The notes beneath the pieces were generated by a model. That model worked only from the letters and a program-made list of their open reading frames with translations. It searched no databases and was not told where the DNA came from. Shown here in pieces: positions 1,869-5,455 of a DNA stretch of 5,455 bases. The translations under genes and the position numbers were made by a program. Where the stretch lies: positions 1 through 5,455 of the IMG/VR virus record IMGVR_UViG_3300045988_000071. One strand, written 5' to 3'. This stretch comes from a virus. How positions within the stretch are numbered: position 1 is the first letter of the stretch; each line of letters starts with the position of its first letter.

Positions 1869-2672
1869 ATGTCAATTTTAGCAGCGTTAGCAACAGGCGC
1901 AAAATTACTGAGTGGCGTGAGCACACTCATAAACGCCGGAACGGGCATATTCAACGCACTCAAAGGCACATCCGGCAGCGGAGCAACAAGCTCAAGCGGA
2001 TACCAGACAAGCCAAGGCGCAAGCGGGTCAACAATGACCGGTGAAAGCGGCGTCAATATGGAACAAACGCAAGAGCTTGCAAAATACTTTCTTGGGCAAA
2101 GCCAGCAAGCACAGGGAATGCAGAGTCAGCAAAACAATAAGAACAGCCTCTTGGCTCTGGGCTTAAACACTCTGGGAGCTATCCAGCAGGGCGTTTATAA
2201 TCGCATCCAGCAGGATGCAGCTATGTCCTACAACTCGGCAGAGGCAGCAGCCAACAGGGCATGGCAGGAAAGGATGAGTAATACAAGTTACCAAAGAGCA
2301 ATGGCCGACATGAAAAAAGCGGGGTTGAATCCAATACTCGCATACCAGCAAGGCGGAGCAAGTACACCGGGCGGAGCACAAGGAACCATTGGACAGAGCA
2401 GCATAAGCGCGCCAAGCGTCGGAACGCAGTCATCAAGTATGCCGACGATCTCCGGATCAGTGGCAAACTACAGCAAAACCAAAGCAGAAAGCTGGTCTTG
2501 GACAGACTCGCACGGAGAGCAGCACAGCAGCGGTTACAACAGCTATCAAACGGACTTCCCGGATTTAAGTCAATGGTTAAACCAAAACAACAACAGCGGC
2601 AAACGAACCGCAACAAGTGGCAAAAGAGATAAAGAAGGATTCGGCGGAAGCAGAGGAGGCAGTTTTAAATGA
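1869..2672 (+). CDS. VP2: Minor capsid / DNA pilot protein VP2
   Basis: 267-aa ORF. The in-frame TAG at 1863-1865 makes ATG 1869 the first possible start. It has a hydrophobic Gly/Ala-rich N-terminus and Q/S/G-rich low-complexity stretches. The conserved gokushovirus VP2 core is present: [22 protein letters not shown]. Confidence 0.9.
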
Positions 2673-3691
2673 GTTGCGCAAGACCACTCATAAGGGTATA
2701 CAATCCAAATGACCACAACATAACAGGATCTATCATGACCTTAGAGACGTACCGCGAAAGAGCGCACGATCCAGCAGCAACGTATGAGAACATCGCATAC
2801 AGAACAGACGTGATGTTACTGCCATGCGGCAAATGTCTAGGCTGTAGACTCAGACAGCGGCAGGACTGGGAAACGCGAATGCTAATGGAGTCAAAAACAC
2901 TGTCGCCAGTATGGTTTTTGACACTAACATGGAGTCAAGAGTATGTGCCGGGCATGGTAAGAGCAACCGGAGAAATCATAAGAGGCGCAAAACACCAGTG
3001 GACGACCGGAGACGCGCCGGAGGTAGTACAAATCCTACTGCAAGAGGACATGGTGCGTTTTAACAAAAGACTGCGCAAAAAGCAAGAAACGTCCGATAAA
3101 TGGGGCTTAGACCTAAGATATTTTTATTGTGGCGAATACGGCGAAAACACGGGCAGACCGCATCACCACGGAATTTATTATGGGTTAGAGATTCCAGACC
3201 TCAAGAAAAAAAGGGGGGATAATCCGTACTTTGAAAGTGAAGAAATAAACAAAATCTGGGGCATGGGCAATGTCATCATTGCAGAGGCATCACCGGAAAC
3301 AATGGCTTATGTGGCAGGATACGTCACCAAAAAGACATATGGCAACGACAACAAAAGATATAGGGAGCTAGGCTTAACGCCGCCTTATTGTTGCATGTCA
3401 AGGAATCCCGGTCTAGGCTACGACTATTACACAAGCCACAAAAAACAGATGTACACAGATGATGGACTATACTTTAACGGCAAAAAAAGACCGATACCAC
3501 GATACTTTGATAAAAAGTACGAAAGTGAGCATCCGGAAGATCTGTGGGAAACGAAACGCAAAAGGCAGTCAAGCGCAATCAACGCGCTAAAGCTCAAAAT
3601 GAGCAATACAGGGCTGACCATCGAACAAGAAGCAAAGGTGGAAGAAGCAACAAAACAACAGAGGTTTAAAAAAGCTAGAGGGCTGTTATAG
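2669..3691 (+). CDS. VP4: Replication initiation protein VP4 (HUH rolling-circle endonuclease)
   Basis: 340-aa ORF. ATG 2669 overlaps the VP2 stop (ATGA) and follows GAGGAGG (2653-2659). Motifs: Cys cluster PCGKCLGCR (res 52-60), motif I FLTLT (nt 2915-2929), HUH-type [11 protein letters not shown] (HHH = nt 3161-3169), and catalytic Tyr motif [11 protein letters not shown] (Y214 nt 3308-3310, Y218 nt 3320-3322). Confidence 0.93.
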
Positions 3692-3696
3692 TGTCA

Positions 3697-3733
3697 GTGG
3701 GCCTAATCCTATCAAGAGAAGGATTAGGCCCAC
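3697..3733 (+). repeat. Perfect inverted repeat (14-bp stem, 9-nt loop) 6 nt after the VP4 stop
   Basis: gtgggcctaatcct (3697-3710), loop atcaagaga, aggattaggcccac (3720-3733). There is no U-tract downstream, so it is not a canonical intrinsic terminator. Confidence 0.9.
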
Positions 3734-3786
3734 ACCCAAGTTTCACAGCTATCCACGGCTAATTAAAAGCATCATAAAAACAAGAA

Positions 3787-3817
3787 GGGGTCTCCTGTCG
3801 CCACGGGAGACCCCTTT
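3787..3817 (+). terminator. Rho-independent-type terminator candidate at the end of the VP1-VP2-VP4 transcription unit
   Basis: ggggtctcctg (3787-3797) pairs with cgggagacccc (3804-3814): 11 bp including one G-T wobble, loop tcgcca. TTT follows at 3815-3817, and flanking AA/TT can extend the stem. Confidence 0.6.
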
Positions 3818-3877
3818 CGTATACGCACCTCGTAGGGGCTACCGAGGTACGAGGCAGATTATAGGTTCAATCACGCT

Positions 3878-3916
3878 CACGCGCACGCACGCGCGAAACG
3901 CGCACGCACGCGCGTG
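3878..3916. repeat. Duplicated 17-mer acgcgcacgcacgcgcg (3879-3895 and 3898-3914), alternating pyrimidine-purine, also foldable as a 39-nt quasi-palindrome
   Basis: Two exact copies separated by aa. Pairing i with 7794-i gives 7 bp + 2x2 A/C mismatch + 2 bp + 2x2 A/C mismatch + 5 bp around an aaa loop. The palindrome cacgcgcgtg lies at 3907-3916. Confidence 0.9.
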
Positions 3917-3971
3917 TATTCACAAACATCATCTATTGTATATAACTTGTTGTAGCAGTAGTAGTAGGCAC

Positions 3972-4148
3972 TGTGGAAAAGTTGAAAACGATAATAATTC
4001 TTCGTTATCACGTGAAAACTAAGGATTATTCGCAGTTGAAAACTTTGTTGAAAACTCGTTGAAATGTTGAAAGTCTAGCAATATGCACAAAAGTCTTTGT
4101 GCAACATTTTGTGGAAAACCTGTTGAAAGTGTTGAAAGTGTTGAAAAC
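3972..4148 (+). repeat. Iteron-like array of about 11 same-orientation GT(T/G)GAAA(N)(N) 9-mers
   Basis: Copies start at 3973 (gtggaaaag), 3981, 4035, 4047 (gttgaaaac), 4058 (gttgaaatg), 4066 (gttgaaagt), 4111 (gtggaaaac), 4122, 4131 (gttgaaagt) and 4140 (gttgaaaac). A degenerate copy cgtgaaaac is at 4011. Copies at 4122-4148 are three perfectly tandem 9-mers. Confidence 0.85.
4084..4103. repeat. Inverted repeat (8-bp stem, 4-nt loop) centred between the two four-copy iteron clusters
   Basis: tgcacaaa (4084-4091), loop agtc, tttgtgca (4096-4103). Cluster 4035-4074 ends 9 nt upstream (gap 4075-4083) and cluster 4111-4148 starts 7 nt downstream (gap 4104-4110). Confidence 0.8.
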
Positions 4149-4186
4149 TATTAAAGGCCGTCCGGCGAGCGAAACCGGAAAGTCAC

Positions 4187-4226
4187 GTCATGCTCTTCGC
4201 ACGGCGCACCGCGCCTAGCGCATGAC
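4187..4226. repeat. GC-rich nested hairpin (7-bp outer stem, 5-bp inner GC stem)
   Basis: Outer stem gtcatgc (4187-4193) / gcatgac (4220-4226). Inner stem ggcgc (4203-4207) / gcgcc (4211-4215), loop acc. A further small hairpin tccgg (4161-4165) / ccgga (4175-4179) lies just upstream. Confidence 0.6.
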
Positions 4227-4231
4227 CTATC

Positions 4232-4251
4232 AAAAAACTGTAAAAAACTGT
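4232..4251 (+). repeat. Tandem 10-mer aaaaaactgt x2 (helically phased A6 tracts) directly abutting the promoter -35
   Basis: Exact copies at 4232-4241 and 4242-4251, with a 10-nt period. Confidence 0.9.
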
Positions 4252-4279
4252 TAACAATCCCCAAAAAATATGGCATAAT
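4251..4279 (+). promoter_or_regulatory. Sigma70-type promoter with extended -10, candidate main promoter for the small-gene cassette and capsid genes
   Basis: -35 TTAACA (4251-4256), 17-nt spacer, TGg extended element (4271-4273), -10 CATAAT (4274-4279). A-tract UP-like sequence lies upstream. The first gene starts at 4374 with AAGGAG at 4359-4364. Confidence 0.55.
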
Positions 4280-4373
4280 TAAGTAAACCAAAGAAAGGAA
4301 GGCAGCAAAAAAGAATTAAAAAAGCCGATGAAGACTGGGAAGACTGCGAAACAATATAAAGGAGACAAAAACA

Positions 4374-4580
4374 ATGGACAACCGCGCATACTACGAGCTA
4401 TACAAAGGATACAGAGGACCAAAAACAGAGGATGAATATGAATACACCATCAAAAAGCTTTACAGACAGCTCAAAAAAACGTATACTGTAGATGAAGCGA
4501 AAGCCATCATAGACGAAATATACAAATACAAAAACCAAAAGGCAGAAATGGAGCTGAACAAATGGCAATCATCGGTTTGA
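4374..4580 (+). CDS. Hypothetical 68-aa protein, Tyr/Lys/Glu-rich, with no family I recognise
   Basis: ORF in track. AAGGAG (4359-4364) lies 9 nt before the ATG. It is the first ORF downstream of the predicted promoter and is on the same strand as all other genes. About 10 Tyr in 68 residues, and no hydrophobic segment. Confidence 0.6.
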   Translation: MDNRAYYELYKGYRGPKTEDEYEYTIKKLYRQLKKTYTVDEAKAIIDEIYKYKNQKAEMELNKWQSSV

Positions 4581-5035: not shown

Positions 5036-5455
5036 ATTTAGAAGCGCATACAGCGGCCACGCGAGACATACGAGTCCGACCGGGAACGGACACGAACCCG
5101 AATACGAGTACAAAGTAACCGAAACCGGCAGAGAGTTGATGAAAACCGGCGAAACAGACGTCTATGCACTCATCCAGAGCCGTCTCGATGAGACCAAAAT
5201 CGAAAACATCATCAAAAGAGCAACCTACGATCCGACGGCGCTGGGCGGCCAGGAATGGCAGAACAGTGCACAGATGGTGGACATCACCGACGTGCCGACG
5301 GACTACCACACATGGTACAACCGCATAGAGGACGCAAAGAAGCAGTTCGAAGCACTGCCTATCGAAGTCAAAAACAAATGGGACAACGACGTGGAAAAGT
5401 ACGTCATGGCCTACGGCACAGCAGAATGGGCCGATAAAATGGGCCTGCTGAAAGA
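5028..5455 (+). CDS. VP3: Internal scaffolding protein VP3, 3'-open at the window end. The full gene is 5028..5356 + 1..148 on the circle, 158 aa. Not in the ORF track.
   Basis: ATG 5028 (inside aatgagtga, overlapping the VP5 stop) follows GAGGG (5015-5019). The hand-translated frame has no stop to the window end: MSEFRSAYSGHARH...DYHTWYNRIEDAKKQFEALPIEVKNKWDNDVEKYV...KMGLLK. The N-terminal M.FRSAYS and C-terminal F..LP..V...W.ND....(GLL) patterns match gokushovirus VP3. Confidence 0.85.
   Translation, partial: MSEFRSAYSGHARHTSPTGNGHEPEYEYKVTETGRELMKTGETDVYALIQSRLDETKIENIIKRATYDPTALGGQEWQNSAQMVDITDVPTDYHTWYNRIEDAKKQFEALPIEVKNKWDNDVEKYVMAYGTAEWADKMGLLK
5357..5455. repeat. Terminal direct repeat, copy 2 (identical to 1..99)
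   Basis: Same comparison as copy 1. The repeat lies inside the VP3 coding sequence, so it is an assembly or circular-permutation overlap, not a biological repeat. Confidence 0.97.

Follow-up and report, generated by a model that had tools for sequence, protein, structure and literature searches.

The genome held in IMG/VR record IMGVR_UViG_3300045988_000071 is that of a complete gokushovirus (Microviridae), as judged from gene content and Pfam matches, and we consider here the non-coding region at 3692-4373 that follows its replication gene, VP4 (Rep); coordinates are those of the window, by which we mean the whole stretch of 5,455 nucleotides (nt) that was analysed. The core of this region (3917-4150) is best explained, from its sequence, as a phage-borne copy or mimic of the dnaA-dnaN origin of the host chromosome. 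Such a host-origin look-alike suggests that this gut phage recruits the host initiator, DnaA, and we think it probable that DnaA-dependent opening of the module is used for replication. A preliminary description of the same DNA had missed three identities on which our account depends, namely that of the 9-mers with DnaA boxes, that of the TAG repeats with DnaA-trios, and the match of the module to bacterial oriC.

Architecture of the module and its bacterial counterparts

Read along the + strand, the module consists of an AT-rich tract, five trios, the tetranucleotide GCAC, two tandem boxes, a spacer of about 45 nt, four 9-mers, a palindrome and four further 9-mers. It thereby resembles the basal unwinding system (BUS) of bacterial oriC, with which it shares an AT-rich tract, at least three trios (5'-TAG-3'), a spacer of about 4 nt, tandem boxes and further boxes beyond them. 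The AT-rich tract (3917-3952), a putative DNA-unwinding element, agrees with the BUS rule on composition alone (75% A+T). It ends in TATATAACTTGTTG, which is conserved in relatives retrieved through VP4 protein alone and is specific to the phages, bacterial oriC being AT-rich at the equivalent position without AACTTG; the sole gene-strand ACTTG[AT]T of the genome also lies within the tract, at 3945. Next come five DnaA-trio-like triplets, TAG CAG TAG TAG TAG (3953-3967, + strand; 5'-TAG-3' is 3'-GAT-5'), where the published BUS search asks for at least three consecutive NAN triplets with 3'-GAT-5' preferred beside the box, and their polarity is that of the tailed scaffolds of unwinding assays. 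Either 3 or 5 consecutive NAN triplets are found in every one of 106 parsed relatives. The spacer that follows, GCAC (3968-3971, +), has the 4 nt that the BUS rule specifies, as it does in 82 of the same 106 relatives, the remainder parsing as 3 nt.

The tandem DnaA-box-like 9-mers at 3972-3988 (+) are offset by 8 nt and share one A. The first, TGTGGAAAA (3972-3980), fits TGTGNAWAA (TTWTNCACA) exactly, has 1 mismatch to TTATCCACA where the rule allows up to 2, and is the commonest first box among relatives; the second, AGTTGAAAA (3980-3988), has 3 mismatches in the same orientation, where up to 4 are allowed in a box no more than 3 bp away. The whole of 3953-3988 thus reads TAGCAGTAGTAGTAG-GCAC-TGTGGAAAA-AGTTGAAAA on the + strand, and every sequence rule of the published BUS search holds for the phage module. 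A search of the window with the strict pattern TAGTAGTAGNNNNTGTGGAWAA gives a single match, and 200 shuffles give none even at a tolerance of 2 mismatches.

Beyond this core, a poorly conserved spacer (3989-4033) holds a weak palindrome and a degenerate box, CGTGAAAAC, at 4011 (z = -1.65). It leads into box cluster 1 (4034-4073, +), made up of AGTTGAAAA, TGTTGAAAA, CGTTGAAAT and TGTTGAAAG at spacings of 12, 11 and 8 nt, and homologous positions of this cluster in relatives read TGTGGATAA, a perfect DnaA box. Between the clusters stands a partly conserved central palindrome of 8 bp, TGCACAAA-AGTC-TTTGTGCA (4084-4103, z = -2.85). Box cluster 2 (4110-4147, +) follows with TGTGGAAAA, TGTTGAAAG, TGTTGAAAG and TGTTGAAAA at spacings of 11, 9 and 9 nt; it is highly conserved, and bacterial dnaA-dnaN origins close with very similar runs. 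Altogether some 180 nt accommodate ten to eleven boxes, none of them in the opposite orientation. Ten of the window's 12 GTKGAAA sites lie within 3973-4146, all on the + strand, where 1.8 are expected window-wide and a total of 12 was reached in none of 200 shuffles. We also compared the 9-mers with the Spo0A 0A-box, whose consensus is TGNCGAA, and set it aside: the 9-mers carry T where C is required.

The same plan is seen in the DNA used to assay unwinding by DnaA from several bacteria. The trio strand of the B. subtilis assay reads TAGTAGAAGTAATAGTAG-GGCC-TGTGGATT-TGTGGATAA (Pelliciari et al. 2021, PMC8287927, supplementary tables), the corresponding strands are GATCAGTAGTAGTAG-GGGC-TGTGGAAAA-TGTGGAAAA for S. 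elongatus and CAGTAGTAGCAGTAGTAG-GGCC-TGTGGATAC-TGTGGAAAA for D. radiodurans, the H. pylori scaffold is built on the same plan, and BUS spacers average 4 bp and are usually GC-rich (PMC8287927). The phage module agrees with these scaffolds in the order of its elements, in the polarity of trios and boxes and in its 4-nt spacer, and the offset of its box pair is also that of the B. subtilis proximal/distal pair TGTGGATT-TGTGGATAA. It differs from bacterial oriC in lying among phage genes in a 5.4-kb single-stranded DNA (ssDNA) phage, away from dnaA and dnaN; in carrying the phage-specific TATATAACTTGTTG at its trio-distal end; in occurring in either orientation within the replicon; and in lacking an oriC1 partner. 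Whereas a chromosomal oriC of this kind would sit beside dnaA or dnaN, the phage module is found between VP4 and a 68-amino-acid (aa) open reading frame (ORF) at 4374, and we regard it as oriC-like in its predicted working and yet no chromosomal origin.

As a control, one genome per bacterial species was scanned with a 29-nt pattern, GTAGTAGTAGNNNNTGTKGAAAWGTTGAA, derived from the phages only. The pattern matched 42 bacterial contigs, some up to 543 kb long, from Oscillospiraceae, Ruminococcus, Ruthenibacterium, other Clostridia and three Selenomonas isolates, most of these loci being metagenome bins. No VP1, VP2, VP4 or other microvirus protein is encoded on the 42 contigs, and in 40 of them the match adjoins dnaN and/or dnaA, with DnaA and DnaN confirmed by Pfam. 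At the 28 loci with both flanks on the fetched stretch the match always falls between the start of dnaN and the end of dnaA. The order in the direction of the genes is dnaA, box array, two boxes, spacer, trios, AT-rich tract and dnaN, which is the layout and orientation of B. subtilis incC and clostridial oriC2. Because 40 of the 42 matches adjoin dnaN or dnaA and phage genes are absent from these contigs, the phage motif is diagnostic of chromosomal origins, and in clostridia the dnaA-dnaN region has been shown to melt in a DnaA-dependent way (C. difficile, PMC7561715).

Over about 200 nt, the best recovered bacterial origins are only 62-69% identical to the phage module. This identity speaks against a recent capture from a sequenced host, and points to an old acquisition or a convergent mimic rather than a recent insert. 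The preliminary description had asked whether the region might be a recent insertion of host DNA without conserved elements; the module is indeed host-like, yet at this degree of divergence its conservation is concentrated in the motifs. A search of PLSDB with the module (blastn) gave no plasmid match, and the canonical-box version of the pattern, TAGTAGTAG-N4-TGTGGATAA, gave 17 matches in IMG/VR, all on contigs of at least 8.8 kb and none of microvirus size.

The choice of 9-mers carries information about the host. The window has GTTGAAA eight times and GTGGAAA twice, in a single orientation, and origins of the Oscillospiraceae/Ruminococcus type likewise have 7-18 copies of GTTGAAA with few GTGGAAA in a single orientation, whereas Selenomonas origins use canonical GTGGATA boxes instead. 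This repertoire predicts Oscillospirales hosts (Oscillospiraceae/Ruminococcus-type Clostridia), which fits a CRISPR-based report of a gut microvirus clade targeted by Firmicutes. Over all bacterial loci, GTTGAAA boxes are 4-fold enriched upstream of dnaA, but loci of the Oscillospiraceae type have none there, and the enrichment does not decide whether GTTGAAA is the DnaA box.

The bacterial origins themselves merit a remark. Five of the Oscillospiraceae/Ruminococcus type (L272, L275, L285, L288 and L296; L numbers are our labels for the genomes and loci compared) carry TGTTGAAA(A/G), in up to 18 copies, instead of TTATCCACA-type boxes, and none of these 9-mers falls within the 450 nt that precede dnaA. 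This hints at a divergent DnaA box in Oscillospiraceae origins and perhaps at a one-part origin. Another locus, L290 (CAYWPN010000018.1), labelled as a metagenome-assembled genome of Alistipes, has an Oscillospiraceae-type dnaA-dnaN origin and a Clostridia-like DnaA that is 56% identical to the L262 protein, and its bin assignment to Alistipes is probably wrong.

Conservation, inversion and the proposed mechanism

Forty-nine phage records match the region, and in several gokushoviruses only about 3932-4148 still matches by megablast. Between gokushoviruses with coding genes too diverged for megablast, no other stretch of nucleotides is conserved as well as the core, a result that bears out the suggestion of the preliminary description that this non-coding DNA is functional. 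All 32 relatives that were retrieved through VP4 protein alone and have sufficient downstream sequence carry the BUS core, and retrieval by pattern added genomes with VP4 only 31-49% identical; the 139 distinct module sequences span VP4 identities of 31-98%. When the positions on which retrieval relied are set aside, conservation is 90% in the 9-mer cores against 66% in the spacers (p = 1e-17). Homologous positions of the array toggle among TGTTGAAAA, TGTGGAAAA and the perfect box TGTGGATAA, behaviour that would be expected of low- and high-affinity DnaA boxes, unlike that of Rep-specific iterons. A natural variant pares the module down further: Gokushovirus WZ-2015a (KT264799, L001, 3515-4048), the nearest GenBank record (84.7% identical across 80% of the window), retains just the AT tract, five TAGs, a spacer and two boxes, with unrelated DNA containing small ORFs in place of the remaining array. 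One further genome (L393) has a degenerate module from which the trios are missing.

In 26 of the 139 distinct loci the module is inverted relative to the genes, and also relative to hairpin 1, the Rep-linked hairpin at 3697-3733 that we describe below. It sits inverted between VP2 and VP4 in a group with 31-34% VP4 identity, and has been flipped in place in four other genomes. A single-strand origin or packaging signal would be expected to keep a fixed orientation, and the 9-mer module does not. Since it appears functional in either orientation relative to the packaged strand, the module presumably acts on the double-stranded replicative form, and the inversions tell against the 9-mer part being a nick site, a packaging signal or the origin of the complementary strand. 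The AT-rich/trio end faces hairpin 1 in 135 of the 139 loci, despite the opposite gene order in the two common arrangements. In members of the inverted group (L179, L202, L051) the array is closed at its trio-distal end by a perfect box in the opposite orientation, TTTTCCACA, convergent with the last GTTGAAAAC.

We propose that host DnaA-ATP would occupy the boxes on the supercoiled, double-stranded replicative form, oligomerise from them onto the trio strand, and melt the adjoining AT-rich tract, which lies towards the Rep hairpin. Single-stranded DNA would thereby become available to the host helicase, primase and replisome, and possibly to the phage Rep (VP4), and the opening may also help to extrude or expose the Rep nick site in hairpin 1. 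It may feed theta-type replication, helicase loading for rolling-circle synthesis, or assistance to Rep.

Several observations weigh against this proposal. The rules of the published BUS search are permissive, and the strength of the case lies in the exact match and the genome-scan control. The spacer is not consistently GC-rich in relatives (mean GC 52%, with varying composition), and TGTTGAAA(A/G) deviates from TTWTNCACA at a C that is usually conserved; that these 9-mers are DnaA boxes is suggested by their position and by their interchange with canonical boxes. In the Oscillospiraceae types the region before dnaA shows no enrichment of this 9-mer, with 0 sites in L272, L275, L288 and L296. 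In four loci the AT-rich end is directed away from hairpin 1. We know of no DnaA requirement for rolling-circle replicons. A sister subclade (L349, L339, L363) has the same kind of hairpin and, genome-wide, essentially no DnaA-box-like 9-mers, and the module is thus inessential for gokushovirus replication generally. Finally, C. difficile oriC2 alone is not melted in vitro without oriC1 (PMC7561715), and for that reason a lone oriC2-like module might be insufficient. The preliminary description had asked whether close relatives lacking the region replicate normally; the distant L349, L339 and L363 do lack the DnaA module, and because they have the hairpin without DnaA boxes we take the module to be a lineage-specific addition, with no universal requirement for it, and the hairpin to be a general gokushovirus element.

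It is also conceivable that DnaA binds the array to another end, either for titration of host DnaA, datA-like and blocking re-initiation, or for transcriptional coupling of the phage promoter or promoters to the cell cycle. A role of this kind would suit the dense packing of the boxes, the position of the array immediately upstream of a promoter at 4251-4279, and the sister subclade without the module, which marks it as dispensable for basic replication. We nevertheless consider it unlikely, as neither titration nor regulation needs trios, a fixed 4-nt spacer or an AT tract, yet those are the most conserved parts; KT264799 retains the unwinding core only, having lost the array; and the inverted arrangement puts the array between VP2 and VP4, distant from the VP5 promoter.

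Direct repeats beside a rep gene are a hallmark of iteron origins, and one might therefore read the 9-mers as iterons for a phage protein (VP4/Rep or a small DNA-binding protein), with the oriC likeness a coincidence. The array does adjoin the rep gene, and the phage-specific TATATAACTTGTTG abuts the repeats. But the same 9-mers, trios, spacer and box pair recur in 40 bacterial dnaA-dnaN regions without phage genes, and homologous positions switch to the canonical TGTGGATAA. Iterons are specific to their own initiator and normally co-vary with Rep, whereas these 9-mers stay constant across VP4 identities of 31-98%, down to the lowest. An iteron array is, on this evidence, improbable.

Less room is left for a role of the array and hairpins on the virion DNA in its single-stranded form, where they could start the complementary strand (in the manner of the phiX174 primosome assembly site or the G4 origin) or serve as a packaging signal. 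All ssDNA phages require a complementary-strand priming signal, hairpins 1 and 2 are very stable as single-stranded DNA, and hairpin 1 and a GC-rich segment downstream of the array keep their strand and may act in this way. There is moreover a precedent: work by Masai and Arai in 1990 reportedly found that a hairpin with a DnaA box assembles a DnaA-dependent ABC primosome in vitro, a case in which DnaA starts priming on single-stranded phage DNA. That system needs a duplex box formed by a hairpin. The phage boxes, being direct repeats throughout, cannot pair into duplex boxes within single-stranded DNA, and the module changes strand in the 26 inverted loci; we hold a virion-strand role for the module to be quite improbable. 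Among the functions that the preliminary description had put forward, host-factor recruitment and a replication module fit best, while a single-strand origin and a packaging signal are disfavoured for the 9-mer part, given its inversion.

That the module is captured host DNA carried passively, without function for the phage, might be argued from its host-like character and from the nature of the spacer around it as an insertion hotspot (a peptidase M15 gene and small ORFs in relatives), but its retention in every VP4-based relative examined, in 139 distinct genomes and at two genome positions, the selection on motifs and not spacers, the identity of only 62-69% to recovered bacterial origins and the otherwise tight packing of the genome leave this scarcely credible.

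The Rep-linked hairpin and the remaining elements

Hairpin 1 (3697-3733) has a perfect 14-bp stem and a loop that reads ATCAAGAGA on the gene strand and TCTCTTGAT on the antisense strand, and it folds far better than its composition would give (z = -7.6). We regard it as an origin element separate from the DnaA module and linked to Rep, a candidate for the hairpin that holds the VP4 nick site. Its stem falls into four unrelated families, each perfectly paired, with compensatory changes within families, while the loop is conserved as (C)TATCAAG(T/A)A or ATAGACAAG(G/T)A; the evidence on the stem comes from direct stem detection, the MAFFT alignment A1 being out of register between stem families. 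The hairpin always adjoins VP4, and its orientation relative to the genes is constant. It thus has the covarying stem, conserved loop and rep linkage that mark the nick-site hairpins of HUH Rep proteins.

A survey of 90 other gokushovirus genomes (L316-L399) places this hairpin in a wider family. The strongest hairpin of these genomes is usually intergenic and bears the loop (T)(A)CTTG(A/T)T on the gene strand, that of Chp2 being TCTACTTGAT. Reverse-complemented, the loop of the window reads TCTCTTGAT and that of a group with 44-48% VP4 identity reads TACTTGAT, identical to the loops of Chp2 and many gokushoviruses and likewise adjacent to rep. Because these reverse complements match, hairpin 1 is homologous to the general CTTGAT-loop hairpin, with its motif antisense to the genes (compare the window at 3697-3733 with L317 at 2904-2941). 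The gene A protein of phiX174 nicks its origin at CAACTTG^ATATTAATAAC, and the loop motif of hairpin 1 and the other gokushoviruses matches the core of that site, ACTTGAT (CAACTTG^AT). Compared with phiX174 and the other gokushoviruses, the window clade differs in having the motif antisense to the genes and in having a second phiX-like copy, AACTTGTTG, unpaired in the AT tract. We tried this second copy as a phiX-like nick site, as it is the only gene-strand ACTTGWT and equals the L322 hairpin loop, and keep it as a candidate without adopting it, since it flips with the module in 26 loci. The candidate VP4 nick sequences are TCTCTTGAT (antisense loop), ATCAAGAGA (gene-strand loop) and TATAACTTGTTGTAG.

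The strand of the motif goes with base composition. CTTG(A/T)T is on the gene strand in 41 genomes, 40 of which have an AT skew of at most +0.25 (mean -0.07), and the motif is antisense in 26 of 26 surveyed window-clade genomes, with skews of +0.26 to +0.39 (mean +0.34; p = 8e-12, uncorrected for phylogeny), so that the T-rich strand always bears CTTGAT. In Microviridae the displaced, packaged strand is conventionally the gene strand. One possibility is that the window clade packages the strand complementary to its genes and has negative-sense virions. In L349, L339 and L363, too, the gene strand is A-rich, and about 40 nt ahead of VP4 they have a hairpin of the antisense type, with loops such as ATCAAGAGCG.

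Between hairpin 1 and the module lie elements that vary. Hairpin 2 (3785-3816, +), a GC-rich stem followed by TTTCG (z = -5.7), looks like terminator-like variable filler, and its position in L219 holds a different stem. Hairpin 3 (3828-3854) is weak (z = -2.1), with 7 of 200 shuffles folding equally well. The CG/CA element (3872-3916) contains an exact 17-mer, ACGCGCACGCACGCGCG, twice (3879-3895 and 3898-3914), in alternating pyrimidine-purine sequence; it does not fold beyond its composition (z = -1.4), and under supercoiling such tracts may be prone to form Z-DNA. In relatives, CG/CA tracts of 18-21 nt are often found directly beside the AT-rich tract (L004 at 1125-1165; L012, L168 and L384), and two bacterial origins (L262 and L276) have CGCGCGCG near the AT tract.

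Downstream of the array, the GC-rich segment at 4158-4226, previously called a nested hairpin, likewise folds no better than its composition gives (z = -1.26). It might be a single-strand origin or an insulator. In relatives the stretch between array and promoter holds other GC-rich, structured sequence, of at least three unrelated types (L004 at about 1410-1500; L216, L222), and in genomes with a flipped module the GC-rich segment adjoins the AT-rich end. Two phased A-tract repeats, AAAAAACTGT, follow (4231-4257, +, the repeats at 4232-4251), upstream of and overlapping the -35 hexamer of a sigma-70-type promoter, TTAACA-17-CATAAT with a TG extension (4251-4279, +; 10 of 12 consensus matches). 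Relatives carry TTGACA-17-TATAAT at this position. The promoter, which the preliminary description had rightly placed at the 3' end of the region, faces the downstream genes and likely drives them. All the elements that it listed are present; as structures, hairpin 3, the CG/CA fold and the GC hairpin are statistically unremarkable.

The window has an exact terminal redundancy of 99 nt (1-99 = 5357-5455), giving a true circle of 5356 nt, and the 682 nt of the region make up 12.7% of that circle, as had been stated. The genes are VP1 (145-1797, with a Pfam Phage_F match), VP2 (1869-2672), VP4 (2669-3691, with a Pfam REP_ORF2-G2P match) and a VP3-like ORF that spans the circle junction; the 68-aa ORF, the first of the downstream small-gene block, starts at 4374 behind a ribosome-binding site, AAGGAG, at 4359-4364. 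It is correct, as had been stated, that the remaining junctions overlap or leave at most 71 nt (71 nt between VP1 and VP2, an overlap of VP2 and VP4, and the VP3-like ORF wrapping into the start of VP1), and that 3692-4373 holds no ORF of at least 60 aa on either strand, the longest listed being 47 aa. Two further claims do not stand. The region is not oversized, as its size is unexceptional in a clade whose spacers from VP4 to the next gene reach about 1.0-1.25 kb with accessory genes; nor is it a single module, being instead a mosaic of hairpin 1, the DnaA module and the promoter, between which lie fillers that are lost or swapped in relatives. The constant parts among relatives are hairpin 1, a module of about 215 nt within 3917-4150, and the promoter; hairpins 2 and 3 and the CG/CA element are absent from relatives whose module begins 69-73 nt past VP4. 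The spacer 3' of the module serves as an insertion site for accessory genes, which come with consensus promoters of their own, TTGACA-17-TATAAT (L004 = KX513868 at 1530-2403; L219, L222); those seen include a gene for peptidase M15 and a conserved ORF, about 60 aa long, MKA(R/K)SLWHL...

We also looked for a hidden small gene, of which the preliminary description had warned, and found no conserved short ORF. A "hypothetical protein" of 77-78 aa is annotated in MG945391 and MG945136 across hairpins 2-3 and the trio/box core, and the frame at 3693-4019 of the window is open for 109 codons. In the window this frame has no ATG or GTG start and fits only a 28-codon ORF from its sole start, a TTG at 3934; KT264799-type genomes have a TGA stop inside the first box; variable positions are non-synonymous in that frame; and the module is also found inverted. 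The window has no Rfam match at E <= 1, and neither a tRNA nor a tmRNA was found in it.

Significance for gokushovirus biology

Host DnaA boxes are familiar as auxiliaries beside the own origins of P1 oriR, pSC101, F and RK2. The phage resembles these in being a mobile replicon with its own initiator and with host DnaA boxes that would serve opening and helicase loading. They replicate by the theta mode with iteron-binding Reps, one to few boxes and no trios, whereas the phage has a rolling-circle ssDNA genome with a complete oriC-type unwinding module. DnaA boxes as auxiliaries of plasmids and phages, and the BUS on chromosomes, are thus already known; what is new is an oriC-type unwinding module in a rolling-circle ssDNA phage. 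The searchable literature yielded no link between Microviridae or gokushoviruses and DnaA, oriC or DnaA-trios. If the proposal holds, no oriC-type origin with DnaA-trios would have been described in a virus before this one.

We find it tempting to suppose, though only as a tentative possibility, that the gut gokushoviruses of a large clade have gained a full unwinding module of the host's oriC type, on top of a rolling-circle ssDNA genome, that DnaA fires replication of the replicative form from it, and that the module carries the fingerprint of the host origin (Oscillospiraceae/Ruminococcus). DnaA-fired replication could be theta-type and chromosome-like, allowing plasmid-like carriage, or it could amount to DnaA-assisted opening of the Rep origin.

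Some consequences reach beyond the phages. A BUS architecture outside chromosomes supports the view that the BUS is a self-contained functional unit, and KT264799 has exactly that unit; the module is also potentially useful for building replicons in genetically intractable gut Clostridia. The hosts of gut gokushoviruses, human and animal, are largely unassigned, and the TGTTGAAA-type repertoire gives a host prediction that needs neither CRISPR spacers nor prophages. For the family itself, the experimentally undefined gokushovirus origin gains two candidate elements, the DnaA module and the Rep-linked CTTGAT hairpin. The textbook microvirus replicates by rolling circle with no more than Rep and host elongation factors, and a complete, conserved DnaA module in hundreds of the family's gut members would add to this picture a hijack of the host's master initiator.

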